Source of the DNA: Alphaproteobacteria bacterium
GTDB lineage: Bacteria > Pseudomonadota > Alphaproteobacteria > UBA828
Direction: 5' to 3'
NCBI GenBank assembly: GCA_963422645.2
Contig: CAXXVO010000008.1
Coordinates: 160,001 to 224,000 of the forward strand
DNA: 64,000 nucleotides
The stretch's first letter is position 1; the number at the start of each line of letters is the position of its first letter. Positions 3,152 through 31,740 of the stretch are shown piece after piece. The notes beneath the pieces are model-generated. The model did no database searches. It was given only the letters and a program-made list of their open reading frames with translations, and was not told the origin of the DNA. The translations under genes were made by a program, and so were the position numbers.

Positions 3152-3433
3152 TCACAGCCTCTCTTCCCGATCTTCCTTCAGCGCATCCGAAATGCTCCCG
3201 GGCAACTCCAGCGGCGGCTCTTCCAGGATCGCGGTGCTCGCGCCGCTGCCCGGCTTCAACAGTCCGTTCCTCACCAGCCGCTCTCGCATTCGGTCCTCGC
3301 ATTGCGCAGCTGGAGGGACGAGCCGCGCGACCACCGCACCCCGATCCTGAACCTGAACTTCGCCGCCGTGCTGGGCCTCACGCACGTATTGCGTGAGGTT
3401 CGAATGAAATTCTGAAACCGACACCACCCTCAT
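3152..3433 (-). CDS. Phd/YefM-family type II antitoxin
   Basis: MRVVSVSEFHSNLTQYVREAQHGGEVQVQDRGAVVARLVP is a typical Phd N-terminus. ATG at 3433 overlaps the upstream stop (ATGA); RBS GGAGGA. Confidence 0.85.
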   Translation of the reverse strand: MRVVSVSEFHSNLTQYVREAQHGGEVQVQDRGAVVARLVPPAAQCEDRMRERLVRNGLLKPGSGASTAILEEPPLELPGSISDALKEDREERL

Positions 3434-3803: not shown

Positions 3804-5564
3804 CTACTCCAGGTAGAAGAGGATTTCGTCGAGGTTCTGTCTGATCGCGGCGGCGTCCTCGGCCTGGCTCTCTCTATCCGCGGCGCGCAAGCGCTCGATC
3901 AGTACGGCTATCTCCTCGCGGTCCTCCTCCGGGGCGGTGTCGAGCGCCAGTTCGGCCCGCTCCAGGGTATCCTGGACCGTGCCCGAGCCATCCGCCGGCG
4001 CGGCAGGCTCGGCGCCGGCGCTCTCCCCGGCTGCCGCCTGCTCGCCCCAGAGCCCCTCGATCCGCTCCTTCGCGGCGGCCAGGTCCTCACCGCTGGAGCG
4101 GCCCGTCGCGTTCTCTACCACGCCGTGAACCTCGCGCCCCGTGCCCCGCTCCACCGCATGCACATTCAAGAGCCCGTCGAGATCGAGATGGTATGTGAAC
4201 AGAAGTCCCTGATCGTATGCCGAGCGGTGCCGGTTCAGCCCGGCGAAGCGGAACGAACCGATCTCCACGTTCTTCAGCGCGTCCGGGTCCTCCCCCTGGT
4301 AGACCTTGATCTCCACCGCTTCCTGCTCCTCGAATACGGTGAAGAAGGCTTCCGTCCGGGTCGCCGGAAGCTTGGTGTTGCGCCGGATGATGGGAACGAA
4401 CTGGTGCGCATAGGGCAGGCCGTGAAGTTTCCCCAGCGTGCTGGTCCCGAAGGTGTAGGGCGTGATGTCGACCAGCACCGCGTGCATGTCCCGGCCCATC
4501 TCGATCCCGGCCTGCACTGCTGCGCCCAGCGCAACGCACAGGTCGGGATCCACCTCGCCGTGGGGCTCCTGTCCCAGCCTCTCCGCGAGCAGTTGCGCGA
4601 TGCGGGGTATGCGCGTGGACCCGCCCACCATTAGAATGCGGTCGAGCTGGCTCGGGCGCACGTCCGCGTCGTTCAGCGCCGTGGTCACCGACTGCATGGT
4701 CCGGGCGAGCGGCTCTTCGATGTCCTGCTCGAACTCCAGGCGGCTCAACTCGCAGGAAAGATGCCTGGCCTCGCCGCCGGCCGACGCTACGTGGTCCTCC
4801 TCCACGTTCACATAGGGTTGGCTCGAGAGCTCGATCTTGGCCGCCTCGGCCGCCCGCCGCAGCCGCGCCTGCAGAACCCGGTCGCCCTGAGCGCCGTCGA
4901 TGCCGAGTTCGCTCTCGACGCGCTCGTTGAGGCGATCGGCGACGATCCTGTCGAAGTCGTCCCCGCCCAGACGGTTGTCCCCGGTCGACGCCAGCACCTC
5001 GACCACGCCTTCCTCGATCGACACCACCGAGACGTCGAAGGTCCCGCCGCCGAGGTCGTAGACCAGGATCGTGCGGCTGCCCTCGCTGAGGCTCTCGTAG
5101 CTGAGCGCCGCAGCCGTCGGCTCGTTGATGATCCGCACCACCTCCATCCCGGCAATCTCGCCCGCTTCCCGGGTCGCCTGCCGCTGCGCGTCGGTGAAGT
5201 AGGCGGGCACCGTAATCACCGCCTTCTGCACGCCGTGGCCCAGGGCGCGTTCCGCCCGTTCCCTCAGCGCCTTGAGGATGAACGCAGAGATCTCCTGCGG
5301 CGTGTACTCCTCCTCACCCATACTCACCCGCTCGCCGGTGCCCATCAGGCGTTTGACGGAAAGCACCGTCCGCTCGGGCGCGGCGGCCCACTGGTTGCGC
5401 GCCTGGCGCCCGACGATGACGCTGCCCGCCTCGTCAACCCCGACGCACGAAGGCAGAATCGCCTCACCGTCCTCGCGGACGACTTCCGGCCTCCCGTCCG
5501 AGAGAATCGCCACCTCGGAGTTGGTCGTGCCCAGGTCAATGCCGATGATCGTATCGGATCCCAT
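3804..5564 (-). CDS. Hsp70-family protein (accessory DnaK-like)
   Basis: IIGIDLGTTNS, AVITVPAYF, IINEPTAAAL, VYDLGGGTFDVS, LGGDDFD, VGGSTRIP; linker VLVDITPYTFG; short C-terminal lid. Confidence 0.95.
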   Translation of the reverse strand: MGSDTIIGIDLGTTNSEVAILSDGRPEVVREDGEAILPSCVGVDEAGSVIVGRQARNQWAAAPERTVLSVKRLMGTGERVSMGEEEYTPQEISAFILKALRERAERALGHGVQKAVITVPAYFTDAQRQATREAGEIAGMEVVRIINEPTAAALSYESLSEGSRTILVYDLGGGTFDVSVVSIEEGVVEVLASTGDNRLGGDDFDRIVADRLNERVESELGIDGAQGDRVLQARLRRAAEAAKIELSSQPYVNVEEDHVASAGGEARHLSCELSRLEFEQDIEEPLARTMQSVTTALNDADVRPSQLDRILMVGGSTRIPRIAQLLAERLGQEPHGEVDPDLCVALGAAVQAGIEMGRDMHAVLVDITPYTFGTSTLGKLHGLPYAHQFVPIIRRNTKLPATRTEAFFTVFEEQEAVEIKVYQGEDPDALKNVEIGSFRFAGLNRHRSAYDQGLLFTYHLDLDGLLNVHAVERGTGREVHGVVENATGRSSGEDLAAAKERIEGLWGEQAAAGESAGAEPAAPADGSGTVQDTLERAELALDTAPEEDREEIAVLIERLRAADRESQAEDAAAIRQNLDEILFYLE

Positions 5565-17382: not shown

Positions 17383-17593
17383 TGGGGCGGTTGATGTCAA
17401 GCACCGATCTGCACGATCTTCCGGCCGAGCACGGTCATTCGAACATGAGGCGTAACTACCCAGGTACCCCAATCCTGAGTTGAGGACGGTGATTATGGCG
17501 GCGGCCGCGGTCTGGTTCTGCCACCGCGATTGGTTCTTGACCTCATAGAGTTGCGGGACTATGGACTGCTCTCTCGCGTGACGGGAGCGGTCC

Positions 17594-17615
17594 ATGGGGT
17601 ATTTCGGCTCGAAGG
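17594..17615 (+). pseudogene. 5' stub (MGYFGSK) of a gene cut by IS21, possibly a D12-class/Dam-like adenine methyltransferase
   Basis: RBS GGGAG at 17583-17587 and ATG at 17594. YxGSK resembles the Dam-family motif X start. Possible promoter TTGACC-N17-TATGGA at 17537-17565. Confidence 0.4.
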
Positions 17616-17817
17616 TGTCAATCGGCTTTCAATACTGACCCCCGATCGGCGTGCAAAATTGACCCCCCTGAGTGGCACGGCGGAGGTTGTCCCGGTAGCC
17701 AATAGGGGGGACCCGCGCGGCTTCGTGTGGCGCCCTGCGCTACGCGGAGCGAAGCCGCGTGGGGGGTCCCTGTTGGCCCACCGGGGCAACCGGGCCGCAA
17801 GGGAGGCCGGCGGCGGG

Positions 17818-18546
17818 TCAGGAGCGGTTCTTGAAGCGCCAGCTCTCGTTGCCGGTCTCGATGATCTCGCAATGATGGGTGAGGCGATCGAGCAGCGCTG
17901 TGGTCATCTTGGGGTCGCCGAAGACGGATGGCCATTCGCCGAAGGCGAGGTTTGTGGTGATGACGATCGAGGTGCGCTCGTAGAGCCGGCTCATCAGATG
18001 GAAGAGCAGCTGCCCACCGGCCTGGGCGAAGGGCAGGTAGCCGAGCTCGTCGAGGATGACGAAGTCGCGGCGGACGAGCTGGTCTGCAGTGCGGCCCTGG
18101 CGTCCGGCGCGAAGCTCGGCCTCGAGGAGGTTGACCAGGTCGACGACGTTGTAGCACCGGCCGCGCGCGCCCTTGCGGATGCAGGACCGCGCGATGGCGA
18201 CGGCGAGATGGGTCTTGCCGGTACCGGTGCCGCCGACCAGCACGATGTTGCGTTTGCCCTCGAGGAAGCCGCCGCCGGCGAGCTCCTGGATCAGGGGCTC
18301 GTTGACCGGCGAGGCGGCGAAGTCGAAGTCGGCCAGCTCCTTGACCGTCGGCAGCTTGGCGGAGGCCATCTGGTACTTGATCGAGCGGGCCCTCTTGTCG
18401 GCGATCTCGACCTGCAGCAGCGTACCGATGATCTGTTGCACCGGATGGCGGCGCTTGAGCCCGTCGGCAAGGATGTCGTCGTAAGCGGCGCGCATACCTG
18501 CGAGCTTCAGCTGGGTCATCATCTCCAGCACATCATGACGCTCCAT
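17818..18546 (-). CDS. istB: IS21 helper ATPase IstB
   Basis: [42 protein letters not shown]. Confidence 0.96.
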
Positions 18547-20047
18547 GACCGGCCTCCCTCAGGCTGTCGTAGCGCTGACAGTCGGCTACCGGCTTGTGGC
18601 GAAGCTGCAGGCCCTCGGGCGTCGGGATGATTGCCGGCGGTGCCGGCTGGCGCTGCCGGGCGAGGATGTTGAGCACCACGTCGGCGCTGCAGGCACCGCA
18701 GTCGAGCGTCTCGGCACAGGCCGCCTCAACCGCCTCCAGTCCGTCCTCCAGCACCGCCGCGAGCACCTTGACGAACTGCCGGTCGCCGTCGTCGTGGCCC
18801 GCGAGCCGGGTTCGCAGGCGGCCGAGCGCGTTGGGCAACTGCCAGTCCTTGAAGGGCGCGCCATTGCGTAGCGCGCCGGGCTTCCGCGTCAGGATCGGCA
18901 CGTAATGCCACGGATCGTAGACGAACCGGCCGCGCCCGAAGCTGCGGGGGTGCTCGGCAACGGTCTCGCCGTCCTGGCGGATGACGATCCGATCGGCATA
19001 GGCCCGCACGTCCACCGGCCGGCCGACGGCGCGGGCCGCGACGCTGTACTGGTTGTTGTCGAAGCGCACCAGACAGGTCTTCGAGACCGACACCTCGCTG
19101 GCATGGAAGCCGTCGAAGGGGCCGCGATACGCCATCAGGAAGGGCTGCTCCTCCTCGAACACCTGCCACACCGTCTTGCCCGGGATTGTCGGATGCGGAT
19201 GCTTCTTGGCGTCCTCGATGCACCGATCCATCAGCCACTCGTTGATCTCGGCGTAGGAGCGGCCCCGCGGGATGGGCACGAACAGGCGGCCGCGAAGGTC
19301 ACCCACCTGCTTCTCGACCTGCCCCTTCTCCCAGCCAGCCCCTGGCGTGCACGCCACAGGCTCCACCAGATGGTGCGAGCACAGCTCCTGGAAGCGGCGG
19401 TTGTAGTCCCGCTTCTTGCCCACGAAGATCGTGCTCACCGCCGTCTTCATGTTGTCGTAGATGCCCCGCCGGCAGACCCCGCCGAAGAAGCGGAAGGCAC
19501 GCTCGTGCGCCTCGAAGACCATCTCCTGGCTCTCGCGGGGAAAGATCTGGACCAGATACATCCGGCTGTGGCACAGCCGCATGTGCGCCGCCTTCACCCT
19601 GGTCGTCGCGCCCGACAGACGCGCGTACTCGTGGCTCCAGTCGAACTGGTAGGCCTCGCCGGGATCGAAGATCAGCGGCACATAGGCCTGCGCCGGCGAC
19701 AACAGCCGCCACCGGCGCCGCCAGGCCCTGGCATAGCGGCGAACCGCGTCATAGCCGCCCTTGTAGCCCAGCGACACAAGGTCTTCATGAATCCGCAGAA
19801 GAGACAGCCGATCCTTGCGTGCCTTCTTCTCGTTGGCCTTCAGCTGGCGCTCAAGCTCCTCCACCCACAGCCCAAGCTTCGGCATCGGCTGGATCTTGCG
19901 CTCGTAGCTGTGCGAGGTCGCATCGCCCCGCACCACCTTGCGTATCGTGTTCTTGGAAACCCTCAAATCCCGGGCGAGCTTCTTGATCGGAACGCCCTTC
20001 ACCAGATGATCCCGACGGATCTTCGCGATCGTTTCCACAACCAGCAT
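18533..20047 (-). CDS. istA: IS21 DDE transposase IstA
   Basis: N-terminal [38 protein letters not shown]. Confidence 0.96.
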
Positions 20048-20163
20048 CTCCCCCACCACCCCGTCCGTCCAAACGACGAGGTGTGTTCATGGACACAAAT
20101 CCAAGGGGGTCAATTTTGGACGCCGATCACCCCCAATAGGGGGTCACTTTTCCACGCTTAACA

Positions 20164-21381
20164 ACACTCCGCGTCGGGCAGGCCGGCGATCGCGCCTCCC
20201 GGGTCGAGTTCCGTGAGCCAGTCGGGCGCCGTCATCGCCCGCGGGCGCAGCTCGGAAAGGCCAAAGCCGGCGGCGACGTCGATCAGATAGGCCGGTGGAG
20301 GCCGCCCTTCGGCAAGTCCGTCCGCGAGCGCGGCGGAAAGCGCGGTCTCGAAGGCTTCGAACGGTACGTCGAGCGCCCCCAGCTCGTCCTCCAGGTTGCA
20401 CGCGGCACTCAGGGCTTCGTCGTCCCGGAAGATGCGCGCGATGGTGACGCCGTGGCCGGCCTTGACCACCACCACCGCGCAAGCGGGTCCGTCCGCAGGG
20501 TCGAGCATGGCGGCGAGATGCTGCATGCTCGAGCCGGCCGGCAGGGCGGCGAGGAAACGCGTCGGACGGCCCGCGGGGCGCGCCATCGGGTGGAAGCGGC
20601 CCCGCAGCCGGGTCTCGCGCAGGGCGGTATCCAGCAAGGGACGCGCGGAATCCGCCGGCATCCAGTTCCGGATGAGCGGCACGAGCGCCGGCAGGGCGGG
20701 CTCCATGGCGTCGCCCCGCACCCGGCCGGAGAGGCCGCTGGCGGCCGCCAGGCGAACCTCGGGCGAGCGGTCCAGCAGCCAGTAGAGGGCGGCGCGGCCG
20801 TACCGCTCCTCTTCGCGCCCCGAAACATGGTGGACGAAGGTCGGCCTGAACTCGGACGGAAGGACCGCCATCAGGTTGGCGAGGAGGTCGTGCAGCAGAT
20901 GATCGTCGCCGCCCGCATGGCGCGCGAGACGGTCGATCTCCCCGTCCAGCAGGCCGGGAAACGCGGCAAGCGCCTGGCCGGTGCCGGGTTCGCCGGCGAA
21001 GATCGGGAAGAGGCATTCCGGCGCATCCAGGCCTGCGCGGATGAAGGCGCGTGCCAGACCGAGCGCGGCGTGGTCCGGGAGGTCGCCGCGGGCGGCCAGG
21101 GTATCGATGGCGCCGCGCGCCTCGGCGAGGAAGGGCTCGCCGAAGCGGCGTCGGTTCTCGGCATCGCGTTGCGCCCGTTCGACCAGGACCCCGAACAGGT
21201 CGAGCGGAGCGTTGCGCTCCGAGTCCGCGGTCCGCGCGATGCGGGCGGCGAGCATGGAAGCCATGCCCGTCCTGCCGAGAAGCACCGGCGCGTGCTGCTC
21301 CGCCAGCTCCCTTCGGTCGAGGAAGTCGTCGAAGCCGTCGAGCTCGTCGAGGCAGGCTTGCAGAAGATCGGCTTCGGGCAT
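20164..21381 (-). pseudogene. Paralog of 15444-17033, 3'-truncated by IS21
   Basis: Similarity runs up to WLTELDPGGAIAGL at the IS end; roughly the last 120 residues of the paralog are missing. Confidence 0.8.
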
Positions 21382-21515
21382 GGTCGTGTCCGGGATAGAG
21401 GGCTGATGCCGGGGATCGAGACGCATCGTGCCATGGCGAGCCCGGTCGTTGAAGACGGCAGGGAGAGACGAAGAGGCGGCGGGGCGCCCGCAGCGGACAC
21501 CCCGCCGACGGTGGA

Positions 21516-21836
21516 TCAGCGGCGCCGGGCGTCGACGAAAATGCCCGCCGCGTAGCTCCCCCACATTTGCATGCCCGAGTCCGTCAGGTTGACCCCGGTG
21601 CAGACGATGACCTCGTGGCGCTCGGGCCGCAGCCGCTGAACGGCCCGCAAGCTCATCGCCTTGCGCGCCTGCTTGCGTCCGCCCTTCGATCCCTTGCCGG
21701 GCCGCCAGGGCCGGATCTGGCCCTAGTAGTCGGACAGGTACCGCTCGACCACGTAGCGCTGGTCATCGAGCCCTTGCCCGAACAGGTGGGTGAGGTAGGT
21801 TCGGGCGTTTCCATGGAGTGTGCCGTTGATCTGCAT
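21516..21836 (-). pseudogene. ~106-codon hypothetical gene with an internal TAG (21723-21725)
   Basis: RBS GGGAGG and ATG at 21836. MQINGTLHGNARTYL...YLSDY*GQIRPW...GIFVDARRR* stays in frame across the amber codon. Confidence 0.45.
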
Positions 21837-22278
21837 GTGCCGCCTCCCGCTAGCCTGTGAGTGGAAGCGGCGAGGACGCCTCTCGCCGGACGCCGCACGC
21901 CGCGCCCCGCTTCAGGCCGGGCTCTCCCTCCTGCCGGCGTGAGGGCGCCGGCGCGGAGCAAGGATCGTGATGCGGGTTGAAGGCGGGGGGCCGCACGCCG
22001 CCGGGCCGGGCGGCCCTGCGGCGCCGCCGAGGCCCGGATGGGCGACGGCATGGCTGGGCCGTGCGCGGCTGCGGAGGACGGGGCGGCGATCCCGCTGCCG
22101 GGGTTTCCGCGGGCTTTTGAGGTCAGGAGTGGTCTGGAGTTTACTTCGGGGTGGTTACTGGGTGATTATTTTCCTCGTTCCGGCGTCGGGCACACGCTCG
22201 TGTCTTCTCCCAAGCTATTGAAATGAAATGGTTATGCGCGACGGCGCGCCCAACCGTGTTGGTGGTGAGAAATCCGGG

Positions 22279-22887
22279 CTAGCTGCCGCCGCCGTCCAGG
22301 TCTTCGGCGAGGGCGTCGCGGGTTTCTTCCGGCATGACCGCGAGATGGCCGTAGGCCGGGTGCTCGATGCCGAGCAGCACGCGCGTCCCCGGTATGTGGA
22401 ACCGCGCGGCCGAGGCAGGCTGGAAGGGGAAGCGGAGGAAATGGATCGAGGAGGTCTTGCCGTCTTCGGTTGTCCGCGCGACCTCGTCCTCGATCGGCTG
22501 GGCGGCGACGGAGGCCCCGCCGACCTCCAGCTTGATGGTGTCCTCGATCCCGGCCAGGCGGTAGAGCTCGCGCTCCCTGCGCGCCGGATCGTCGATCTCC
22601 AGCATCATCGTCGCGATCAGGGCATCGCCGCGCGGAACCAGAGGATTGTAGGCCTCGAGCTCGCCCGCGATCTGCTCTTCCCCACCGCGCTCGATATAAA
22701 GCATCTCGTGGACCTGCATCCACATGGTCTCGAAGCTCTCGAAATGGAAGGTGGCGAAGGGGCCGACGGCGAGTCGGCGGTTGCGCTTCAGCGCCGCAAT
22801 GGCGACGCGGCGCTCCTTGCGGACCCTGGCGTAGTCCGCCATGTCCATGATGTCGTCGCGGGTGAGCGCGCGGCGCTGCTGGCTCAT
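22279..22887 (-). CDS. DUF3501-family protein
   Basis: FESFETMWMQVHEMLYIE, ELEAYNPLVP, ATMMLEIDD, KTSSIHFLRF. Confidence 0.88.
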   Translation of the reverse strand: MSQQRRALTRDDIMDMADYARVRKERRVAIAALKRNRRLAVGPFATFHFESFETMWMQVHEMLYIERGGEEQIAGELEAYNPLVPRGDALIATMMLEIDDPARRERELYRLAGIEDTIKLEVGGASVAAQPIEDEVARTTEDGKTSSIHFLRFPFQPASAARFHIPGTRVLLGIEHPAYGHLAVMPEETRDALAEDLDGGGS

Positions 22888-24263: not shown

Positions 24264-24398
24264 TTACCGGCACGAACCGCAGAGACGGTTACCCGGCCCT
24301 GCGCTATCGAAGAGGCGGCTACAGCGCAGGCAGCGGCGCTGGCTCTCTTGTGCCTCCAGGCGATCGAGCTCCGCGAGTTCGTCGGAGAGCGAGATCAT
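24264..24398 (-). CDS. 44-aa CxxC...CxxC zinc-finger miniprotein
   Basis: MISLSDELAELDRLEAQESQRRCLRCSRLFDSAGPGNRLCGSCR; stop lies 13 bp before the Fe-S oxidoreductase ATG. Start uncertain. Confidence 0.55.
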   Translation of the reverse strand: MISLSDELAELDRLEAQESQRRCLRCSRLFDSAGPGNRLCGSCR

Positions 24399-24610
24399 CC
24401 CGGGTCCGCGATCTACATTCCTGGCGGCTTCACGCCGCGCATCCCATTTGGTCCGTCGTTGAGGCGCGAGCGACATCATTTGGCGCGAGTTCCCTAGCGA
24501 AGTCGTCTGGTGGGCATCCGGTAGGACCATTGTAGCGGAACACGGCGCCCGATCTAAGCCGAAATTTCATATCGGGTGCCCAAAATAGACACCTAATACC
24601 CTGTGGGGGG

Positions 24611-24753
24611 CTATTCGGCGGCCTCAGTGCTGCCTGCGGGCGTGCGGAAGGCCGGAATCACGGCCTCGGCGAAAAGCCGCAGGCTTTTCAATAGATTATC
24701 CGCGCCGTAATAGGGCGGGTAGTGAAGCAGTAGGGAATCGAGTCCGGTGGCGG
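24611..24753 (-). pseudogene. 3' part of an LLM-class flavin-dependent oxidoreductase split by the Mu-like element
   Basis: TGLDSLLLHYPPYYGADNLLKSLRLFAEAVIPAF is the typical LLM C-terminus and joins in frame to 29883-30824. Confidence 0.9.
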
Positions 24754-24759
24754 TGTAGC

Positions 24760-24803
24760 CGGCCAGAAGTCTTTGCGAATCGCGGCCAGAAGTCTTTGCG
24801 AAT
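24760..24803 (+). repeat. Two tandem 21-bp putative transposase-binding sites CGGCCAGAAGTCTTTGCGAAT
   Basis: Exact copies at 24760-24780 and 24783-24803; inverted related copies at 29740-29760 and 29856-29876. Confidence 0.88.
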
Positions 24804-24860
24804 GGCCTGGAAAACAGGCTGATTTTCGGGGCTGATTCGGGCTGGAAAAACGGCCTCTGC

Positions 24861-25334
24861 ATCGGCAGGACGCAGAAGGAGATCCTCGGCGTTCTGAACG
24901 CCGCCCTCGGGGAGCGCGGCGAGGAACCCATCGGCGCCGCCTCGCTCAACCGCTACGTCAACCGCCCCGCGATCCGGGCGCTCGCCGAGCGCGCCCGGGC
25001 GGCGTGCGAGATGGGCGCCGCGATCGCGCAGTCGGCCGGGGAGGGCGCCGGCGCCGCGCTCGACCGCGGACTGGTCCAGGCGGGCCAGACGCTCGCCATG
25101 GAGGCGCTGCCCGCCATCCCCTGGGACGAGCTCGAGCCCGAGGACAGGGTGAAGCTGATCGCCAATTTCGGGCTCGCCGTGCGCCGCTTCGCATCGTCGG
25201 CCGCCGTGGCCGACGCCCGCGGGCGAGCGATCCGCGCCGATGCCGCCGAAGCCGCCGTGAAGGAAGCGCGCAGACAGGGGCTGTCGGCCGAGGGCGCGGC
25301 GAAGATCCGCGCGCAAATCGAGGGGGCGGCATGA
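24861..25334 (+). pseudogene. Mu gp27-like (DUF3486) putative small terminase, 5'-truncated
   Basis: The frame is open upstream of ATG 25011 (GRTQKEILGVLNAAL...IGAASLNRY), but no ATG/GTG/TTG occurs before the in-frame TAG at 24756. C-terminus GLSAEGAAKIRAQIEG; ATGA overlap with terL. Confidence 0.7.
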
Positions 25335-26767
25335 GCCGGGCGCTCCTGCCCTACCAGAGCCGCTGGGTTGCAGACAGGGCACAGCTCAAGATCGTCGAGA
25401 AGTCGCGCCGCATCGGCCTGTCCTGGGCCGAGGCCTACGACGCCGTGATGCACGCCGCCGTGGGTGGGGGCAACGTCACCTACCAGTCCTACGACAGGGA
25501 GATGACCAGAGGCTTCGTCGACGACTGCGCGGACTGGGCGGAGCACCTGGACTTCGAGGCCGGCGCCATCGGCGAGAGCGTCATCGATGCCGGCAATGCC
25601 AGGGCCGTGCAGGTGTTCCGCATCCGGCTCGCATCGGGGAAGACCATCACGTCGATGACCAGCGCGCCGCGCGCGCTCAGGTCCAGGGGACGCCCCGGAG
25701 ACCGGGCGATAATCGACGAGGCCGCCTTCGTCGACGACCTGGGCGAGGTGCTCAAGGCCGCGCTCGCCTTCCTCACGTGGGGCGGGCGGGTCCATGTGAT
25801 CTCGACCCACAACGGCGAGGCCAGCCCCTTCAACCTGCTGCTGCGCGACGTGCGCGAGGGCCGCCAGCCGGGGTCGGTCCACAGCATCCCCTTCCGCCGG
25901 GCCGTCGCAGAAGGGCTGGGCCGGCGCATCTTCGAGGTGACGGGCAAGGAGTACTCGCCCGGGGCGGAGGCCGAATGGGAGGCCGGGATCCGGCGCACCT
26001 ACGGCCACCGGGGCGCCGAGGAGCTCGACTGCGTGCCCAGTGCAGGGACCGGCGCCTGGCTCGCATGGGACCTGATCCGCGAGCGCGAGCACCCGGACGC
26101 GGGCGATCCTGTGCGCCACGCCGGCGGGAGCACCTGGATCGGCGTCGACGTGGCGCGGCGCCGCGATCTCTGGGTCGCCGCCGTCATCGAGAAGGCCGCC
26201 GACGCGCTCTGGGTGCGCGAGATCGTCGCCCGCCAGGGCATCCCGTTCAGCGAGCAGCGCAGGATCGTGCGCGGCCTCGCCGAACGCTACCGCCCGCTCC
26301 GCATCGCGGTCGACCAGACCGGCATGGGCGAGGCCGTGGTCGAGCAGTGGCAGGAGGACCACGGCACGCTGCGGGTCGAGGGCGTGCTCATGACCGGCCC
26401 GCGCCGGCTGGATGCCGCCACCGCGCTGCGCGAGGCCATGGAGGACAAGCGCCTGCGCCTCCCCGCAGACGAGGCATTGCGCCGCGACCTCCACGCCGTG
26501 CGCGCCGAGGCCGGACCCACCGGCTCGCCCCGCCTGGTCGCCGAGCGCTCGGGCACCGACGGCCACGCCGACCGCTTCTGGGCGCTCGCGCTCGCCTGCC
26601 TCTCGGCCTCGCAGGCATCCGGCCCCTTCCAGGCCTGGATCGGCGAGGGCCGCCACGCCGTCCATGACATGCCGGGCTCCCCCTTCGACGGCGATACCGG
26701 CTACCGCATCGACACCGAACTCGGCGTCGTCCATTCCCCCCTCTCCGCCCTGAACGGCTGGCGATAG
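25331..26767 (+). CDS. Mu gp28-like terminase large subunit
   Basis: LLPYQSRW, EKSRRIGLSW, AIIDEAAF, ISTHNG, IGVDVARRRD, DQTGMG, HADRFWALALA. Confidence 0.92.
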   Translation: MSRALLPYQSRWVADRAQLKIVEKSRRIGLSWAEAYDAVMHAAVGGGNVTYQSYDREMTRGFVDDCADWAEHLDFEAGAIGESVIDAGNARAVQVFRIRLASGKTITSMTSAPRALRSRGRPGDRAIIDEAAFVDDLGEVLKAALAFLTWGGRVHVISTHNGEASPFNLLLRDVREGRQPGSVHSIPFRRAVAEGLGRRIFEVTGKEYSPGAEAEWEAGIRRTYGHRGAEELDCVPSAGTGAWLAWDLIREREHPDAGDPVRHAGGSTWIGVDVARRRDLWVAAVIEKAADALWVREIVARQGIPFSEQRRIVRGLAERYRPLRIAVDQTGMGEAVVEQWQEDHGTLRVEGVLMTGPRRLDAATALREAMEDKRLRLPADEALRRDLHAVRAEAGPTGSPRLVAERSGTDGHADRFWALALACLSASQASGPFQAWIGEGRHAVHDMPGSPFDGDTGYRIDTELGVVHSPLSALNGWR

Positions 26768-26770
26768 CCC

Positions 26771-28258
26771 ATGGCCGCGCCCGCCCCCGCACGTCCCGGG
26801 ACCGCCGAGATCGCAGGCCCGCAGGCCGGCATCGGCGGCATCGGCGAGCTCGTCCTCCCCTGGCTCGACAGCGACCCGGCGCTCGGCGCCGACCCCCGCC
26901 AGTGGCAGGCCGATCCCACCGGGATCGCGGCCGCACAGGCCGCGCTCCGCGACCCCCACGCCCGCGCCGTCCTCGACCAGCGCCTCGACGCCGTCACGGC
27001 CGCCCCCCTCGATATCGAACCCGGCGGCCCGATGCGCCGCGACAGACAGGCCGCCGGGGACCTCGCGGACCAGTTCGGCGGGATCGGGATCGACCGCATC
27101 TCCCGCGAACTCCTCCACGCCGCCTGGTACGGATACAGCATCGCCGAGTGCATCTGGGAGATCGACGGCGCCCGCGTCCGCCTCGCCGATCTCAAGGTCC
27201 GCGACCCCGCCCGCTTCCGCTGGCGCAGGGACGGAACCCCGCTGCTCGTTACCCGCGAGAACCCGCGCGGCGCCGAACTCCCGCCCGCCAAGTTCGTCGT
27301 GCTCGCCCAGCCCCGCAGCCACGGCGGCCAGCCCCACGGCCCCGGCGCCGCACAGTGGTGCCTCTGGCCGGTCTGGCTCAAGCGCCAGGCTGTGCGCATG
27401 TGGGCGGTCGCGCTCGAGAAGTTCGGCAGCCCCACCGCCATCGGCACCGTCCGCCGCGACGCGCCGGCGGCCGAGATCGAGACGATGCTCCAGGCCCAGC
27501 GCGCCATGGCCGGAGGCACCGGCCTCGTCATCCCCGAAGGCCAGGAACTCAAGCTGCTCGACTCGGTCCGCCGCGCCGGCGGCGACTACGGCGCCTTCGT
27601 CGCAGCCCTCGACGGCATGATCGCGGACGCCGTCCTCGGCCAGCGCGCAACCTCCGAGATCGGACCCTGGCGCGGCACCGCCGAAGTCCAGGCCAAGGTG
27701 CTGGAGCGCCTCGTCGCCGCCGACGCCCGACGGCTCTCCGCCGCGCTGCGCAACTCCGTCGCCGCCTGGCTCACCCAATGGAACTTCCCCGGCGCAGACG
27801 TGCCCGAACTCGCCCGCAACACCGCGCCCCCCGAGGATCTCGTGGCCCGCGCCAGGCGCGAGGAGACCGTCGCCCGAACCTCGGGCCTCCGCCCCACCCC
27901 CGCCCATGTCGAGCAGGTCTACGGCGGAGAATGGGAGAAAGCCCCCGCCCCACCCCCGACGCCAGGCGGCGATCCCCGCCCCGCGCGCCTCGCCGAGCCG
28001 GCGCAGCAGGACGACGACGCCATCGACGACGCCGTGGACGCGATCGCCGCAGACTGGCAGCCCCTCGTGGAGCCGGTCGTCGCCCCCGTGCTCGGCGCCG
28101 CAGAGAACGCCGACAGCCTCGGCCGCTTCCGTGCCGCGCTCGACGAGCGCCAGCTCTGGGAGGACATGAACGCAGACCGCATCGCCCGCCGCCTCCGCCG
28201 CACCGCATTCTCCGCCCGCCTCTCCGGCGACGCAGGCCTCGACGAGGGCGAGGGCTGA
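26771..28258 (+). CDS. Mu gp29-like portal protein (DUF935)
   Basis: AAWYGYSIAECIW, LWPVWLKR, WAVALEKFGSP, VLGQ, WNFPG; located between terL and gpF. Confidence 0.88.
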   Translation: MAAPAPARPGTAEIAGPQAGIGGIGELVLPWLDSDPALGADPRQWQADPTGIAAAQAALRDPHARAVLDQRLDAVTAAPLDIEPGGPMRRDRQAAGDLADQFGGIGIDRISRELLHAAWYGYSIAECIWEIDGARVRLADLKVRDPARFRWRRDGTPLLVTRENPRGAELPPAKFVVLAQPRSHGGQPHGPGAAQWCLWPVWLKRQAVRMWAVALEKFGSPTAIGTVRRDAPAAEIETMLQAQRAMAGGTGLVIPEGQELKLLDSVRRAGGDYGAFVAALDGMIADAVLGQRATSEIGPWRGTAEVQAKVLERLVAADARRLSAALRNSVAAWLTQWNFPGADVPELARNTAPPEDLVARARREETVARTSGLRPTPAHVEQVYGGEWEKAPAPPPTPGGDPRPARLAEPAQQDDDAIDDAVDAIAADWQPLVEPVVAPVLGAAENADSLGRFRAALDERQLWEDMNADRIARRLRRTAFSARLSGDAGLDEGEG

Positions 28259-29451
28259 TGCCCGCGCCCGAGATCCTGGACGTACCCCCCGCCGAGGCCG
28301 TCGAGCACTTCCGCGCCAGGGGCTTCCACACAGGCTTCGACTGGCGCGACACCGATGCCGAGCAGCACCTGGTCTCCTTCACCGCCGCCAAGGCCGCGAA
28401 GCTCGACATCCTCCAGGACCTGCGCACCGCCGCCGACAAGGCCATCGCGGACGGCACAACCTTCGAGACCTTCGCCAGGGAGCTGCAGCCCACCCTGGTC
28501 CGCAAGGGATGGTGGGGCAGGCAGCCCATGACCGATCCCCTCACCGGCAAGACGCGCATCGTCCAGCTCGGCTCGGCCCACCGCCTGCGCATTATCTTCG
28601 ATACCAACATCCGCATGGCCTACGCCCGCGGCCGATGGGAGCGCATCGAGCGCCTCAGGGAGGCCATGCCCTGGCTCCGCTACGTCGCCGTCCAGGACGC
28701 CCGCACCAGGCCCGACCACCTCGCATGGCACGGCACCATCCTTCCGGTCGATCACCCCTTCTGGCAGACGCACTACCCGCCCAACGGATGGAAGTGCCGC
28801 TGCATCGTCCAGCAGCTCGGAGACGACGACCTGGAGCGCTACGGATACAAGGTGTCCGAGGGTCCGCCGCCCGGCTCCGGGCGCACCAGGCCCTGGAAGA
28901 ACCGCCGCACAGGCCGCATCCACCAGGTCCCCCTCGGCATCGATCCCGGCTTCCAGCACAACGTCGGCCGCGCCCGGCCCGGGCGCGACAGCGCAAACCG
29001 CCTGATCGAGAAGATCGACGACGCGCCCCCCGACCTCGCACGCGCCGCCATAGGCCAACCCTGGCGCGGGCAGCTCTTCCGCCGCCACCTCGAAGGCCGG
29101 TCCGACGCCGACTGGCCCGCGGCCGTGCTCTCCGCCCCGGTGCGCGGCGCCATCGGCGCACGCTCCCGAACCGTCCGCCTCTCCACAGAAACCGCCGCAA
29201 AGCAGGCCAGGCGACACCCCGATCTCGAACCCGCAGACTACGCCCGCGTCCAGCGCATCCTCGATCAAGGGGAGATGTTCGCCGGCTACGAACGTCAGGC
29301 CGTCGGCTTCCTCGAAGAGAACGGCCGCCTGTGGCGCGCCGTCGTCAAGGCCACCGTGGACGGCTCCGAGACTTATCTCGTGACCCTTCACAAGGCGCAG
29401 CCCCGGGACCGCGACGTGGCGCAGCGGCGTTGGGTCAGGATCGAGCTTTGA
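28258..29451 (+). CDS. Mu gpF-like head morphogenesis protein with a ~150-aa C-terminal extension (possible PBECR/BECR fold)
   Basis: RLRIIFDTNIRMAYARGRW, YVAVQDARTRPDHLAWHG, FWQTHYPPNGWKCRC, IDPGFQHNVG, then extension KQARRHPDL...WRAVVKAT...YLVTLHK. TGATG overlap with the portal gene. Confidence 0.88.
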   Translation: MPAPEILDVPPAEAVEHFRARGFHTGFDWRDTDAEQHLVSFTAAKAAKLDILQDLRTAADKAIADGTTFETFARELQPTLVRKGWWGRQPMTDPLTGKTRIVQLGSAHRLRIIFDTNIRMAYARGRWERIERLREAMPWLRYVAVQDARTRPDHLAWHGTILPVDHPFWQTHYPPNGWKCRCIVQQLGDDDLERYGYKVSEGPPPGSGRTRPWKNRRTGRIHQVPLGIDPGFQHNVGRARPGRDSANRLIEKIDDAPPDLARAAIGQPWRGQLFRRHLEGRSDADWPAAVLSAPVRGAIGARSRTVRLSTETAAKQARRHPDLEPADYARVQRILDQGEMFAGYERQAVGFLEENGRLWRAVVKATVDGSETYLVTLHKAQPRDRDVAQRRWVRIEL

Positions 29452-29460
29452 AGGGAAAGA

Positions 29461-29528
29461 TGGCGCCGGGCGGGCCGCAACCCCCGCGCTCGCCCGAAGG
29501 CATGAGAGTCATGCGTGCTTCCAGCGCC
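29461..29528 (-). ncRNA. Predicted 68-nt tRNA-like structured RNA convergent with gpF
   Basis: GGCGCUGG/CCGGCGCC 8-bp closing stem plus 3' A; GCAUGA-CUC-UCAUGC hairpin; C(UUCG)G loop; GCGGG/CCCGC arm directly 5' of the closing stem; promoter correctly spaced upstream. Confidence 0.55.
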
Positions 29529-29534
29529 ACGCCG

Positions 29535-29563
29535 ACCCTACGCGCCGCCGCACGCCACCTCAA
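29535..29563 (-). promoter_or_regulatory. Putative sigma70 promoter TTGAGG-N17-TAGGGT driving the tRNA-like RNA
   Basis: -35 at 29563-29558, -10 at 29540-29535, 17-bp spacer; +1 would fall at or near G29528, the first base of the stem. Confidence 0.55.
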
Positions 29564-29882
29564 GCCGATTCAGCGCCCCGGCGCGGGCCGCCGCCAGCCT
29601 CGCGGGACGGGCGCCTCGCCCCGGATTTTCCAGCCGAATCCGATACCCCGAAACCGACCCGATTTGCCGCCGTCGCAAGACCCCTGAAACGCCCCGAAAA
29701 TCGCCGTTTCCAGCCAATTCACGGCCTCTGCACGGCCCGATTCGCAAAGACTTCCGTCCGCACGCCAGCCGCCGCACCGCCACCGTGCCGCCGCGCATCC
29801 CCTTGAGATTCCGCCACCTTCCGCCCGATTCCGCCTGATTCCACCCCTTGACCCGATTCACAACGACTTTCGTCCGTCTACA

Positions 29883-30824
29883 GGCGGCGCGCAGCGCCCG
29901 GATGCGGGCGATCACGGTCTCGGGCGAGCCGTGGACCAGGGTGGTCTCCAGCAGCGTGTCGTAGTCGAACGCCCCGGCGCTCTCCTTCTCCGAGACGTTG
30001 CCGAGGTAGCCTGCGGTCTTTTTGCCGAGGAACGCTTCGAGGTGGCGGATGATCCCTGCCTCGCTCTCCTCCCGCGCCTTGGCGTCGGTCTCGGCCACAT
30101 AGATCCAGCGGGCGATATTGATGGAGCCGAAGGCCGGATTGGCGTTCCAGGGTGCCGGGGCGTGGGTCATGGTCTCGCGATAGAGGGCGATCTGCCCAGC
30201 GAGGGTCTCGAACGAAGGCAGGGTGGAGAGCATCAGGCCGAAGCCGTGGCGCGCCGCGATTTCGATTGAACGGTTCGTGCCGGCGGCCATGTAGAATGGC
30301 GGATGCGGCTGCTGCACGCTCACGGGGTAGATCTCGTAGTCGCCCTCGACCCGGTGCTGGAAGTGGGCGCCCTCATGGCTGACCTTCCGCGTATGGAAGG
30401 CGTCGAGAATCAAGGGGATGGCTTCTTCCTGAATGTCGTGGCGTGCGTCGAAGGGGATCCCGAAGCCCTCGTATTCGTAGGGCCGATAACCGGAACCGAG
30501 GCCCAGGCTGAGCCGCCCGTTGCTCAAGATGTCAACGAAGGCCGCGTTCTCGACGATCCGAACCGGGTTGTGGAGCGGGAGCGTCATCACCGCCGTGCCG
30601 AGCCCGATGCGGCTGGTCTTGGGCGCCAGATAGGCCAGATAGACGAAGGGATCCGGCAGCACGCCGTACTGGTTGGAGAAGTGGTGTTCGGCGATCCAGG
30701 CGGTGTCGTAGCCCAGCCGGTCCGCCTCCACGATCTCGCGGGTCACGCGCGCGTGCACGGCGCGGTGCGGATAAGGTTCAACATCGAGATTGGGCTGAGA
30801 GGTAACCAGAACACCGAATTTCAT
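29883..30824 (-). pseudogene. 5' part of the LLM-class flavin-dependent oxidoreductase (luciferase-like monooxygenase), interrupted
   Basis: MKFGVL, AWIAEHHFS, RIGLGTAV, GRLSLGLGSGY, QQPHPPFYMAA, GSPETVIARI. Removing the element and one GGCGG restores a 359-aa ORF. Confidence 0.92.
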
Positions 30825-30882
30825 CGTTCACTCCGCGGGCCGCCCGCTGCGGATGCACGATCGCACGCAGCGGGAGCGGCAC

Positions 30883-31101
30883 CTATTCTCGATAAACTGT
30901 CCACGCGCCGTCCTCGCCAGTCAGCAGACCCTCGCCCGGCGGATTCTCGTCCAGTGCGTCCTTCCAATTGCTGGGATGAAGCGGCTCGCCGCAGGCCGCG
31001 AGCCCGACGACGGCCGCGATGGCCGGGACCGGGACGATGAGTGCTGCAGCGCGGCGCGAGCCTGCTCTCGCCCGGCGCAGGGGGCGCAAACCGGTTTCCA
31101 C
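30883..31101 (-). CDS. Small putative lipoprotein
   Basis: Hydrophobic stretch and lipobox LAAC, then GEGLLTGEDG; 6 bp behind mlaC. Confidence 0.55.
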   Translation of the reverse strand: METGLRPLRRARAGSRRAAALIVPVPAIAAVVGLAACGEPLHPSNWKDALDENPPGEGLLTGEDGAWTVYRE

Positions 31102-31107
31102 GCCGGG

Positions 31108-31740
31108 CTATTCCCCGACCGGCGCCTCGACCCGCGCCCGCAGGTCGCCCAACAGGCCGTCGATCCCCTTGCGATTGACGACCGAGGCGAACTCGACCCG
31201 ATGGGTGTGCAGCATGCTGATGCCTTCGACGTTCACGTCGATGACCTTGTAGCCTTCGTCCCGCTTCCGCACGCGAAAATCGACGTCGATCGGATTACCG
31301 CCGGAGGGCCGCACGATCTGCGCCCGCACGATCTTGTCGCCGCTCTCGTCATTGATCACCAAGCGCGCAGTGAACAGCTCGCCGCCATAGGAATCGAAGC
31401 GGCTGGCGTACACGCGTACGATAAATTCGACGAAGATCGCCCGGTATTCCTTGCGCTGTTCCTTGGTTGCCGTTTTCCAGTGCCGCCCGAGCACGAAACG
31501 GCTGACAATCGGAATGTCGAAACCCTCCACCATGACCTCGCGGAACGCCGCCTCCCGCTCTTTGAATGTCGAGTTGGCCTTGTCCTTGAGGACCGCGATG
31601 GCCTGGTCGCCGAGCCCCTGAATGAACGCCAGCGCCGGGTCGTCGGAGGCGGAGGCCCGCTCTGCGCCGATCGCGGATACCAATACGGCCGCAGCGAGAG
31701 CAGCGGCCGCAAAGAAGCGTCGAGAGATGAAGATGCTCAT
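31108..31740 (-). CDS. mlaC: MlaC/Ttg2D phospholipid-binding periplasmic protein
   Basis: Signal peptide; SRFVLGRHW, YKVIDVNVEGISM, GIDGLL; adjacent to mlaA. Confidence 0.9.
   Translation of the reverse strand: MSIFISRRFFAAAALAAAVLVSAIGAERASASDDPALAFIQGLGDQAIAVLKDKANSTFKEREAAFREVMVEGFDIPIVSRFVLGRHWKTATKEQRKEYRAIFVEFIVRVYASRFDSYGGELFTARLVINDESGDKIVRAQIVRPSGGNPIDVDFRVRKRDEGYKVIDVNVEGISMLHTHRVEFASVVNRKGIDGLLGDLRARVEAPVGE

Follow-up and report, generated by a model that had tools for sequence, protein, structure and literature searches.

Comparative sequence analysis points to an undescribed family of folded small RNAs encoded opposite and directly behind MuF genes of Mu-like and related phages

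Phage-encoded small RNAs as such are already known. The lambda OOP RNA and the 3'-overlapping antitoxin RNAs of type I systems (RatA and SR4) are ~77-100 nt long, have their own promoters, and run convergently into the 3' end of a gene. The ToxI antitoxins of type III systems (ToxIN) are tandem repeats located upstream of the toxin gene on the same strand and are processed by the toxin. The pRNA of phage phi29, which to our knowledge is confined to phi29-like Bacillus phages, is a structured RNA with a three-way junction and is linked to the portal and packaging machinery. On the protein side, MuF polymorphic toxins with a downstream immunity gene have been described (Jamet et al. 2017, PMC5576092; drawn on here in part). 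Further, Iyer et al. 2017 (PMC5512222), in the portions of the paper drawn on here, present PBECR as six families and describe the MuF-C PBECR domain for gp30 of phage Mu and its orthologues, predicting that it binds RNA (in Mu, where it is the inactive form) or, in active orthologues, acts as an RNase; the same portions make no mention of an RNA gene adjoining MuF-C.

We analysed a stretch of 64,000 nucleotides (the window) from an Alphaproteobacteria bacterium (assembly GCA_963422645.2, contig CAXXVO010000008.1), in which a MuF gene is located at the right end of a Mu-like element. The protein-coding surroundings, in positions of the window, are as follows.

24759-28258, plus strand: packaging module, Mu-type (Pfam Phage_Mu_Gp27, Terminase_6C, Portal_Mu)
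24759-25334, plus strand: gp27-like gene (Pfam Phage_Mu_Gp27)
25004-26767, plus strand: large terminase (Pfam Terminase_6C)
26771-28258, plus strand: Mu-type portal (Pfam Portal_Mu)
28258-29451, plus strand: MuF (gp30-like), 397 aa (Pfam Phage_Mu_F at residues 54-184, E 1.3e-22)
29164-29430, plus strand: MuF-C/PBECR-like domain, approximately residues 303-391 (RelE/BrnT/colicin D-type fold in a predicted model)
29452-29882, plus strand: non-coding right-terminal region of the multi-copy Mu-like element (terminus ...CTACA at 29882)
29883-30824, minus strand: luciferase-like monooxygenase gene, interrupted by the insertion (Pfam Bac_luciferase, residues 1-314 of 428)

The near-identical copies of the element that we list all end within a few nucleotides of 29882, and the genome has 76 such termini, ending ...ACA. 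The terminal region carries two direct repeats of ~28 bp, of the type CCCGATTC..GACTT..CGTCCG, at 29738-29766 and 29853-29882. All nine candidate end pairs begin TGTAG and end CTACA, and identical 5-mers flank five of the nine; these are the TG...CA termini and 5-bp target duplications of a Mu-like element. The only transposase-type genes seen were the IS21-type IstA/IstB; a search for a MuA-type transposase with PF09299 (Mu-transpos_C) gave no match, but the control genomes were silent too. We rejected the presence of an intact Mu-like prophage in this genome, in which Mu gpT had no match, and the 22.9-kb stretch between two element ends on C15 is single-copy, host-like DNA. We also note that the element has many internally deleted copies and that its right arm consists of gp27, terminase, portal and MuF only. 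The frame of the interrupted monooxygenase remains open through the transposon end to 29538. We do not regard this 428-aa minus-strand ORF as a genuine full-length gene, since its Pfam domain stops at residue 314 and its codon-position GC signal stops near 29880, at the transposon end. No coding signal was detected in 29452-29880, and the long frames behind MuF (29515-29838 on the plus strand and the tail of the run-on minus-strand frame 29541-30824) had no Pfam or PHROG match there. This agrees with the original prediction, made from the letters of the window, that no immunity protein gene is located downstream of MuF: the next 431 bp are non-coding and constitute a transposon end.

In that position the original prediction had placed a discrete structured RNA gene, encoded on the minus strand, convergent with MuF and equipped with its own promoter. 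The sequence parts on which it was built (the outer stem, the abutting GCGGG/CCCGC, C(UUCG)G, GCAUGA-CUC-UCAUGC, and TTGAGG-N17-TAGGGT) are all present. Our comparative model divides the element as follows.

29535-29563, minus strand: predicted promoter with -35 TTGAGG (29563-29558), a 17-nt spacer and -10 TAGGGT (29540-29535)
29462-29528, minus strand: small RNA core (P1, J1/2, P2, P3, P1'); covariance model matches at 29460-29530 of 89.7 bits (R1) and 85.7 bits (R2)
29521-29528, minus strand: P1 5' strand, partner of 29462-29469
29507-29520, minus strand: J1/2, of varying length, which starts with a conserved A-R-N-C-A and contains a CGCA segment
29489-29506, minus strand: P2, CUC-AU-GCC(UUCG)GGC-GAG, from the RNAalifold consensus, with compensatory changes in L065 and others
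29470-29487, minus strand: P3, GCGGG-GGUUGCGG-CCCGC, 5 bp with an 8-nt loop
29462-29469, minus strand: P1 3' strand, 10 nt off the MuF stop codon

The closing stem P1 has 8 bp, formed by GGCGCUGG (29528-29521) with CCGGCGCC (29469-29462) and including one G.U pair. P2 consists of 6 bp in two 3-bp runs, contains a 2-nt bulge and is capped by UNCG, J2/3 is 1 nt long, and P3 directly adjoins the 3' strand of P1 with no nucleotide between them. A discriminator-like A is located at 29461, 9 nt from the end of the MuF stop (29451). The promoter, which is of the sigma-70 type, ends 4-6 nt upstream of P1; the transcript probably begins a few nucleotides upstream of the core, near 29530-29533, and probably ends in a C/U-rich tail near 29445-29460.

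When the minus strand of this copy was folded as a single sequence, RNAfold gave -34.3 kcal/mol (z -0.68), and 47 of 200 shuffles were as good. The tRNA-like identity originally suggested found no counterpart in the tRNA finder or in Rfam: ARAGORN reported no genes in the whole window, and Rfam gave no match at E<=10 in 28000-31500 and none at gathering score in 18 loci with homologues, and on this basis we rejected a tRNA or tmRNA gene and a known RNA family. A fold no better than shuffles and the lack of tRNA and Rfam matches would also suit functionless chance hairpins in G+C-rich DNA, a reading that is barely credible because the helices covary and the element recurs at the same place in unrelated flanks. 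Within this genome, 12 copies of the element follow MuF genes, and it takes the same position in 5 of 20 congeners as well as in MAGs, viral contigs and a cultured Ochrobactrum phage, POA1180, with copy lengths of 70, 71, 73, 74, 75 and 81 nt. Conserved across the members are the outer stem P1, the UUCG-capped hairpin, the T-like arm P3 and the promoter. In 33 sequences aligned to the model, 95.3% of cells were paired, compared with 42-49% with slid partners, and 13 of 19 pairs had changed on both sides (75 cells), a number reached by none of 500 shuffles; the alignments behind these pair counts were fitted to the model, and one of them, A4, includes two doubtful rows (L131:1964 and L091). The covariation that the original prediction expected behind homologous MuF genes was therefore found. 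Both-side changes affected 6 of 8 pairs in P1 (33 sequences) and 3 of 5 pairs in P3, where 97% of cells were paired; in a set of 25 sequences, they affected 10 of 19 pairs. The relative L065 alone has compensatory changes in P1, in three pairs of P2 and in P3. In phage Mu, D3112 and Alteromonadaceae phage B23, we detected no significant model match to the RNA, and SuMu gave only a 9-bit match, at the correct place. The one tandem arrangement observed (G015) represents a duplication taking in a MuF 3' remnant. Overall, the comparison settles what the single fold could not, and we consider the predicted small RNA confirmed as real at the level of sequence comparison.

Because helices are symmetric, the covariation fits both strands, and we therefore considered that the structure might act in the plus-strand late transcript or in the DNA (as a terminator, a 3' stabiliser of the MuF mRNA, or a transposition or packaging site), with the minus-strand promoter being incidental. 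The plus strand of this copy does fold better against shuffles than the minus strand (z -2.04 vs -0.68), and eight A.C cells become G.U in the plus sense. However, the promoter is conserved in place: the layout TTG-N16-18-nAnnnT occurs at the fixed position in 21 of 32 distinct flanks, compared with 22 of 2173 (1%) control windows, and apart from this layout the flanks cannot be aligned between genomes. Examples are TTGAAA/TACATT (L065), TTGAAT/TATTTT (L113), TTGCCT/CATATT (phage POA1180) and TTGACA/TATCAA (G122). At our locus, a consensus promoter scan did not call TTGAGG/TAGGGT because it matches at 7 of 12 positions only. Further, P2 is capped by UUCG, UCCG or UGCG in 18 of 31 sequences, and the distant members L119 and L150 have, by eye, GCGA or CUUG at the tip; UNCG- and GNRA-type caps are special loops in the minus sense only. 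The helices contain 14 G.U against 8 A.C cells, a mild preference for the minus sense. The terminator scan at the locus was empty, the plus-strand stem is not followed by a U-tract, and the element is found in the middle of phage genomes as well as at the transposon end. Taken together, a function in the plus strand or in the DNA appears quite improbable. Also on the plus strand, we rejected a small ORF starting from the ATG at 29460, as the start codons do not lie in one frame and the copy lengths differ by non-multiples of 3. A long hairpin, CGGGCG...CGCCCG, in place of P3 is disfavoured, since it clashes with the covarying sixth pair of P1, and it has uncompensated changes in G015c and G011a. 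The consensus fold and the promoter conservation thus bear out the original prediction of a separate minus-strand RNA gene, including a reverse promoter conserved behind homologous MuF genes. We conclude that the predicted RNA is roughly 75-95 nt long, compactly folded and provided with its own predicted transcription, and that it is a member of a family located on the opposite strand directly behind MuF (gp30-type) genes with MuF-C/PBECR in Mu-like and related phages and prophages. A search of the literature on the topic did not find this family.

The detailed likeness to tRNA held up in part. The hairpin centred on CUC, which had been read as anticodon-like, is present only in this copy and its near-identical twin (C9:19378) and is broken in other copies of the same genome and in aligned relatives. 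Similarly, C(UUCG)G, formerly assigned to a variable-arm loop, belongs to the conserved middle hairpin P2 (29506-29489). What remains of tRNA mimicry is topology (P3 stacked on P1, an arm in the middle, and the P3 loop possibly paired with the strand at the D position); the anticodon arm, a 7-nt loop, the T-loop motif and CCA did not stand, in line with the results from ARAGORN and Rfam. The resemblance would be one of topology only. The possible pairing involves the CGCA segment of J1/2 and UGCG in the P3 loop, which could form a pseudoknot. Across members, complementary segments of 4-6 nt with apparent compensatory changes can be picked out by eye in J1/2 and the P3 loop (CGCAA/UUGCG, UCGUA/UACGA, CCGCC/GGCGG, UCGCCA/UGGCGG, CGCU/AGCG and UUGGA/UCCGA). 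The complementarity of each J1/2 to its own P3 loop scored 293, compared with a mean of 268 when partners were swapped (~2.2 sd; 271 of 20000 permutations as high), and a parallel-orientation control gave 275. We treat the candidate pseudoknot as suggestive only.

The neighbouring protein was assigned to PHROG 220, 'minor head protein and DNA pilot', over residues 5-364 (E 1e-94), and Pfam gave no match for its C-terminal part. An AlphaFold2 model of MuF residues 234-397 (pLDDT 93.6) has a helix at 92-104 and strands at 106-109, 114-121, 124-132 and 139-147. The best rows of a VIA-align search with this model, covering model residues 70-158, were BECR RNase toxins at Z 5.7-4.7, i.e. a RelE-like toxin (7vd7, Z 5.7), CdiA-CT (5i4q, 5.6), BrnT (5.5) and the colicin D tRNase (4.7); Z scores of 5-6 are modest. 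Foldseek pointed to BrnT (prob 0.98, TMt 0.70). The model and its structural matches support the BECR-like C terminus of the original prediction, and by this model the MuF C terminus does have a BECR-type RNase fold. It is, however, not a polymorphic-toxin extension, as had been proposed: with 51 homologues found, the domain is the already described, conserved MuF-C PBECR domain (PMC5512222, as far as drawn on here) and not a swapped toxin cassette. A conserved polar pattern, S..T..KQ...H...Y plus a T/S in the last long strand, is widespread in the homologues, and our protein has both the His of RRHPD (residue 87 within the 164-aa piece) and, in that strand, T143. We saw no tie between presence of the RNA and the K-Q-H residues of MuF-C: RNA-bearing loci include variants that are devoid of them (L119, L123, L087 and L090), so that the RNA cannot be tied cleanly to an 'active' site.

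How the RNA is coupled to MuF bears on what it might do. Among 85 MuF-C loci, model R2 gave 25 matches at E<=5, of which 20 were directly behind MuF on the opposite strand, and the five misplaced matches all had E>=0.28. In the second element family of this genome, MuF is 313 aa long and lacks the C-terminal domain, and this family had no significant RNA match; in phages Mu and D3112, gene G directly follows F, with no intergenic space. Beyond the RNA, the DNA varies by locus, being a transposon end here and a protease gene in POA1180. One possible but doubtful explanation is that the RNA is a cis-antisense regulator, made constitutively, that pairs with the late mRNA behind MuF and with its last codons, such that cleavage or a block of read-through lowers MuF or downstream head gene products in lysogens. 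The RNA is convergent and has its own promoter, P1 is separated from the MuF stop by -3 to +11 nt in 23 of the 28 loci where MuF-C was matched, and the C/U-rich tail after P1 runs into the last MuF codons, to which it is antisense. In intact phages, the late operon runs on across the RNA gene (in POA1180, it connects MuF with the protease), and the RNA is therefore fully complementary to the intercistronic stretch; further, its size of ~75-95 nt is like that of OOP. However, plain antisense action needs no closed three-helix fold with a tetraloop cap, and the compensatory changes and the UNCG/GNRA caps imply that the structure matters in itself. The fold would leave little single-stranded RNA to pair, and the overlap with coding sequence is a few codons at most. 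Moreover, in this genome MuF is the final gene ahead of the transposon end, which leaves no cistron downstream for the RNA to control; even so, the RNA is retained in 12 copies.

An unlikely explanation is that the RNA is a trans-acting 'moron' RNA of the phage with a target outside the locus (host mRNAs, a defence or tRNA-handling protein for which it is a decoy, or a role as virion RNA), for which the site behind MuF is merely permissive. Accessory genes under promoters of their own do occur behind F/G in Mu-like phages, one being the anti-CRISPR gene AcrF2 of D3112, and the promoter here appears constitutive. The RNA is also sporadic among MuF-C loci, 70 of the 85 having no in-place R2 match at E<=0.05. 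A permissive spot alone is hard to reconcile with a P1-stop spacing kept within a few nucleotides at MuF-C identities of 24-67%, and the distant members share no common conserved single-stranded seed.

The reading that we favour, tentatively and with less than even confidence, is that the RNA is a folded, protein-binding partner of the RNase-type C-terminal domain of MuF rather than a plain antisense RNA. The compact fold, with its structural P2 tetraloop and the possible pairing of J1/2 with the P3 loop, argues for a protein-binding RNA. Against this reading, most MuF-C loci gave no RNA match with our models, and if MuF-C needs an inhibitor, most phages do without this one. As a folded partner, the RNA would bind the domain and most likely keep it inactive, in the manner of an antitoxin or decoy, in cells carrying or producing the element; instead, it may be an RNA ligand of the domain. 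A more specific form, which we hold to be doubtful, is that MuF takes its RNase-fold domain into the virion and that this domain has a tRNA-shaped inhibitor or ligand in the RNA. The RNA could then replace an immunity protein as the 'immunity factor' against an injected endoribonuclease, or the domain could be loaded with a dedicated RNA before packaging.

The family has unusually clear comparative support and keeps the same register relative to a single gene in MAGs of Alphaproteobacteria, in viral contigs and in a cultured phage, and its context, a Mu-type transposable element with 5-bp target duplications, is notable. In phages such as POA1180, the RNA accounts for the 'empty' gap of ~300 nt that follows MuF. 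It provides an experimental handle on the RNase-fold C terminus of MuF/gp30, the role of which has so far only been predicted, and allows a test of whether an RNA can replace the immunity protein of a virion-borne nuclease. Were the inhibitor or ligand reading true, the locus would represent an undescribed toxin-antitoxin-like pair, in which a single convergent RNA with its own promoter is matched with a structural virion protein, and the long-unexplained C-terminal domain of the Mu gp30 type would have a concrete RNA partner.

Compared with the MuF polymorphic toxins, as described in the parts of PMC5576092 drawn on here, the locus has in common the MuF N-terminal module, an RNase-type C terminus and the temperate element, but the C terminus belongs to a conserved family and no protein gene comes next; instead, the RNA and the transposon end take that position. 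With PBECR, in the corresponding parts of PMC5512222, it shares a domain located C-terminal to the MuF head-morphogenesis domain in a packaging cluster, with a BECR-type fold in the model. Like OOP, RatA and SR4, the RNA is small, has its own promoter and is convergent with the 3' end of a phage or prophage gene; here, the overlap is a few codons at most and the RNA has a closed, covarying three-helix fold. Further, type I toxins are small hydrophobic membrane peptides, whereas the neighbour here is a 397-aa virion protein. ToxIN shares the idea of an RNA that neutralises an adjacent endoribonuclease, but the RNA described here is present as one unit, located downstream on the other strand and with its own promoter, and the protein side is matched by a predicted RNase-type fold only. 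The phi29 pRNA is likewise a structured phage RNA near packaging genes, but is longer; no terminase subunit is replaced in our locus. Finally, the RNA resembles tRNA, D-armless mitochondrial tRNA and the tRNA-like domain of tmRNA in having a closing stem of 7-8 bp, an abutting 5-bp arm and a middle arm, and the possible pairing of the strand at the D position with the loop of the T-like arm recalls the tRNA elbow; it differs in having a tetraloop instead of an anticodon loop, a 1-nt J2/3, and neither a T-loop motif nor an encoded CCA.

The original prediction described a tRNA-like small RNA with its own promoter, convergent with a MuF gene and a candidate antitoxin or decoy of the MuF C-terminal domain. 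The features of the locus are as follows.

28258-29451, plus strand: MuF gene, 397 aa, with Phage_Mu_F (Pfam) at residues 54-184 and PHROG 220 ("minor head protein and DNA pilot") at residues 5-364
29528-29462, minus strand: core of the candidate small RNA
29452-29882: right end of a multi-copy element, with the terminus ...CTACA
29883-30824, minus strand: luciferase-like monooxygenase gene, cut by the insertion, with a run-on frame to 29538

Upstream of MuF lie a gp27-like gene, the large terminase gene, and a Mu-type portal gene. When the sequence was re-read, the minus-strand letters from 29528 to 29461 were exactly as first described, and TTGAGG-N17-TAGGGT was found at 29563-29535 of the same strand, a site not called by the consensus promoter scan. 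The fold of this copy taken alone is unremarkable (-34.3 kcal/mol, z -0.68; 47 of 200 shuffles were equally good). The proposed tRNA likeness drew nothing at the locus from either ARAGORN, which called no tRNA, or Rfam, which gave no match at E<=10.

When the genome's own copies were aligned, similarity restarted at 29461, past diverged MuF 3' ends, and in BLAST searches against 40 relatives only the first ~80 nt of the stretch behind MuF matched, in several congeneric genomes and after MuF-like 3' ends. A first covariance model (R1), built from 13 distinct sequences, detected the RNA in 6 of 44 genomes of the family, namely the window's genome (12 copies) and 5 of 20 congeners, and in none of 23 genomes from nine other genera of the family. 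R1 also matched strongly in four MAGs (labelled Rhodospirillales, Alphaproteobacteria, Rhodobacteraceae, and Defluviicoccus) and two metagenome contigs, and weakly in four viral contigs, with place and strand unchanged. We collected 85 loci encoding relatives of the MuF C-terminal domain (26 genome, 39 viral, and 20 metagenome contigs), over which a second model (R2), built from 25 sequences, gave 25 matches at E<=5. Of these, 20 were in place, directly behind MuF and on the strand opposite it, and the other 5 were misplaced, each with an E of at least 0.28; 15 of the 85 loci had an in-place match at E<=0.05. The cultured, temperate Ochrobactrum phage POA1180 carries a homologue (27.4 bits, E 1.4e-4).

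L150 (the POA1180 locus) 3194-3502, record 5143-5451: RNA homologue in a 309-nt unannotated gap between head-morphogenesis GP04 and protease GP05, with the promoter TTGCCT-N17-CATATT

Sampling 150 further genomes of the class added one carrier, in which the RNA again stands directly behind a MuF gene. The model had no significant match in phages Mu and D3112, where gene G abuts F with zero intergenic space, or in phage B23.

The RNAalifold consensus, in the minus sense, consists of an 8-bp closing stem (P1), a variable strand from P1 to P2 (J1/2), a middle hairpin (P2), one nucleotide, and a final hairpin (P3).

P2: CUC-AU-GCC(UUCG)GGC-GAG
P3: GCGGG/CCCGC, loop of 8-9 nt, abutting the 3' strand of P1 directly

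Across 33 sequences, standard pairs fill 95.3% of cells, as against 42-49% for slid partners, both sides have changed in 13 of 19 pairs (75 cells), and 0 of 500 shuffles matched these values; a 25-sequence set gave 95.2% paired and both-side changes in 10 of 19 pairs; both alignments are of related sequences fitted to the model, and the 33-sequence set has two doubtful rows. Covariation of an RNA flanking MuF is thereby upheld; the anticodon hairpin GCAUGA/UCAUGC of the original prediction is broken in the aligned relatives and in the genome's other copies, a near-identical twin (C9:19378) excepted. Visual inspection shows 4-6 nt of J1/2 to be complementary to the P3 loop and to co-vary with it (CGCAA/UUGCG, UCGUA/UACGA, CCGCC/GGCGG, UCGCCA/UGGCGG, CGCU/AGCG, and UUGGA/UCCGA). 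In a formal test this putative pairing is only suggestive: the complementarity score was 293 for own pairs, averaged 268 (sd 11) for swapped ones, and was 275 in the parallel-orientation control, and a value at least as high as the own score arose in 271 of 20000 permutations and in 20 of 2000 J1/2 letter shuffles. The element was also considered as a coding sequence and rejected, being non-coding by comparison of copies.

P2 is capped by UUCG in 16 of 31 sequences, by UGCG and UCCG in 1 of 31 each, and, by eye, by GCGA or CUUG in more distant members; these caps are stable loops in the minus sense only. Helix cells hold 14 G.U versus 8 A.C. The flanks of the RNA are otherwise unalignable between genomes, and in 21 of 32 distinct flanks the model match is preceded, at 1-6 nt, by TTG-N16-18-nAnnnT, a pattern present in 22 of 2173 control windows from the same loci; most of the remaining flanks have a near-miss in one hexamer. 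The reverse promoter is conserved in place, and its position is, from the sequence comparison, decisive for the predicted strand and transcription of the RNA. Set beside these minus-sense caps and this promoter, a plus-strand or DNA-level element ranks fourth among the readings and is very improbable. Because a C/U-rich tail follows P1 and is U-rich in A+T-richer contigs (e.g. UUUAAUUUUCCCC in locus L113), P1 and the tail may act as a terminator.

MuF-C (the C-terminal PBECR/BECR RNase-fold domain) is matched on the strand opposite the RNA at 28 loci, three further loci having no such match. In 23 of the 28, the distance from the MuF stop codon to P1 is -3 to +11 nt; in the other five it is -44, -34, 180, 291 (the second copy of a tandem pair), and 701 nt. 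The tandem pair, ~210 nt apart (L023 1211-1291 and 1500-1569; G015:C1:501277-501635), has, for each copy, a promoter-like flank and a preceding MuF 3'-end-like tail. A decayed orphan copy in the window's genome (G000:C13:123493-123566; 55-65 bits, P3 broken) has neither a nearby MuF nor a promoter-like -10 box. The MuF-then-end layout recurs in the genome's second element family, whose 313-aa MuF lacks the C-terminal domain and in which the RNA model has no significant match. Whether a locus has the RNA shows no visible relation to the conserved K-Q-H residues in MuF-C. Together, the alignments show a new conserved, structured, putative small-RNA gene with its own predicted promoter, held in fixed register to the end of MuF genes that bear MuF-C. 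Given this convergent register, a cis-antisense, OOP-like role ranks second and is possible, if somewhat doubtful; a trans-acting accessory RNA ranks third and is unlikely. The neighbourhood beyond the RNA differs among loci.

The RNA lies within the end of a Mu-like transposable element. BLAST against the own genome gave 11 whole-length copies of this end (420-430 bp, 81-100% identity), shorter pieces (82-100%), and ~25 second-family copies (73-76%), and all matched copies stop at or within a few bases of 29882, in ...CTACA. Genome-wide, MuF is present in 12 copies, full or partial, and there are 76 termini of three end types; opposite-end candidate pairs start TGTAG and finish CTACA, with identical flanking 5-mers in 5 of 9. 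Ends of the form TG...CA, together with a 5-bp duplication, are characteristic of Mu-type transposition. Copy number drops inward from both ends, which fits internally deleted derivatives, and many copies are internally deleted to 0.3-0.9 kb (e.g. C22:13199-14091). The copy at C13:162347-170596, with a 5-bp duplication, spans 8,250 bp (~6.1 kb minus an inserted repeat) and contains little beyond gp27, terminase, portal, and MuF. In the genome neither the Mu major head gene nor Mu-transpos_C was found, the search controls for the latter being silent too.

For the copy in the window, no opposite end lies within reach. Its left boundary, 24394-25345, does not coincide with an element end; the gp27-like gene there and the terminase gene's 5' part are found nowhere else in the genome, and beyond, on the other strand, are host-type genes (a CCG-domain protein and DUF3501). 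On the right, the 428-aa minus-strand frame at 29538-30824 resembles luciferase-like monooxygenase in its first 314 residues only, and the codon-position GC signal ends near 29880, because 29452-29882 is the right end of the multi-copy element; the run-on frame is open across the transposon end, and its stop TAG is the start of the RNA's -10 box. Elsewhere in the window, 97-342 is the right end of a second-family element, whose terminase-portal-MuF genes (MuF of 313 aa without the C-terminal domain) lie just before the window at C9:156325-160343. At L017 10034-10846 (G000:C6), 3-4 kb upstream of the packaging module of a second-family element, there is an HNH-like ORF together with a gene for GemA (Mu gp16-like); an IS21 copy has inserted next to them, and the two may be left over from a longer Mu-like element. 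Three further repeats stand side by side at 17451-22282: a unit of 165 bp, present about sixty times in near-identical form; an IS21-type element of ~2,552 bp that encodes IstA (with a Mu-transposase-like C-terminal domain) and IstB and is found at 99-100% identity in several dozen places, several of them inside Mu-like ends; and a repeat of 2,116 bp, present about five times.

MuF residues 235-397 have 51 homologues at E<=1e-3, and the C-terminal part matched no Pfam family and, by sequence, no PDB chain. An AlphaFold2 model of residues 234-397 (31-row alignment) reached a pLDDT of 93.6, and its geometrically consistent Foldseek matches were RelE-type toxins only (best BrnT; prob 0.98, TMt 0.70, E 0.08). 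Over 48,161 chains, VIA-align returned a uniform list of modest Z values, led by a RelE-like toxin (5.7), CdiA-CT of E. coli NC101 (5.6), and BrnT (5.5), followed by another CdiA-CT (5.0), colicin D tRNase (4.7), and, lower, RelE, YafQ, and ParE. The model thus agrees, at modest Z, with the BECR-type fold first proposed for the MuF C terminus.

The RNA matches no Rfam family, and no mention of such an RNA turned up in topic searches of a paper library or in main-text passages of PMC5512222. We tentatively favor the reading that the RNA would be a protein-binding partner of MuF-C, as inhibitor or ligand, because it combines a closed fold with structural loop caps and a fixed link to one domain of an RNA-binding type. 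Among known systems, the MuF C-terminal domain is the one described as MuF-C among phage BECR (PBECR) domains, of which that of Mu gp30 has been called inactive and probably RNA-binding, and those of its orthologues probably RNases (Iyer et al. 2017, PMC5512222).
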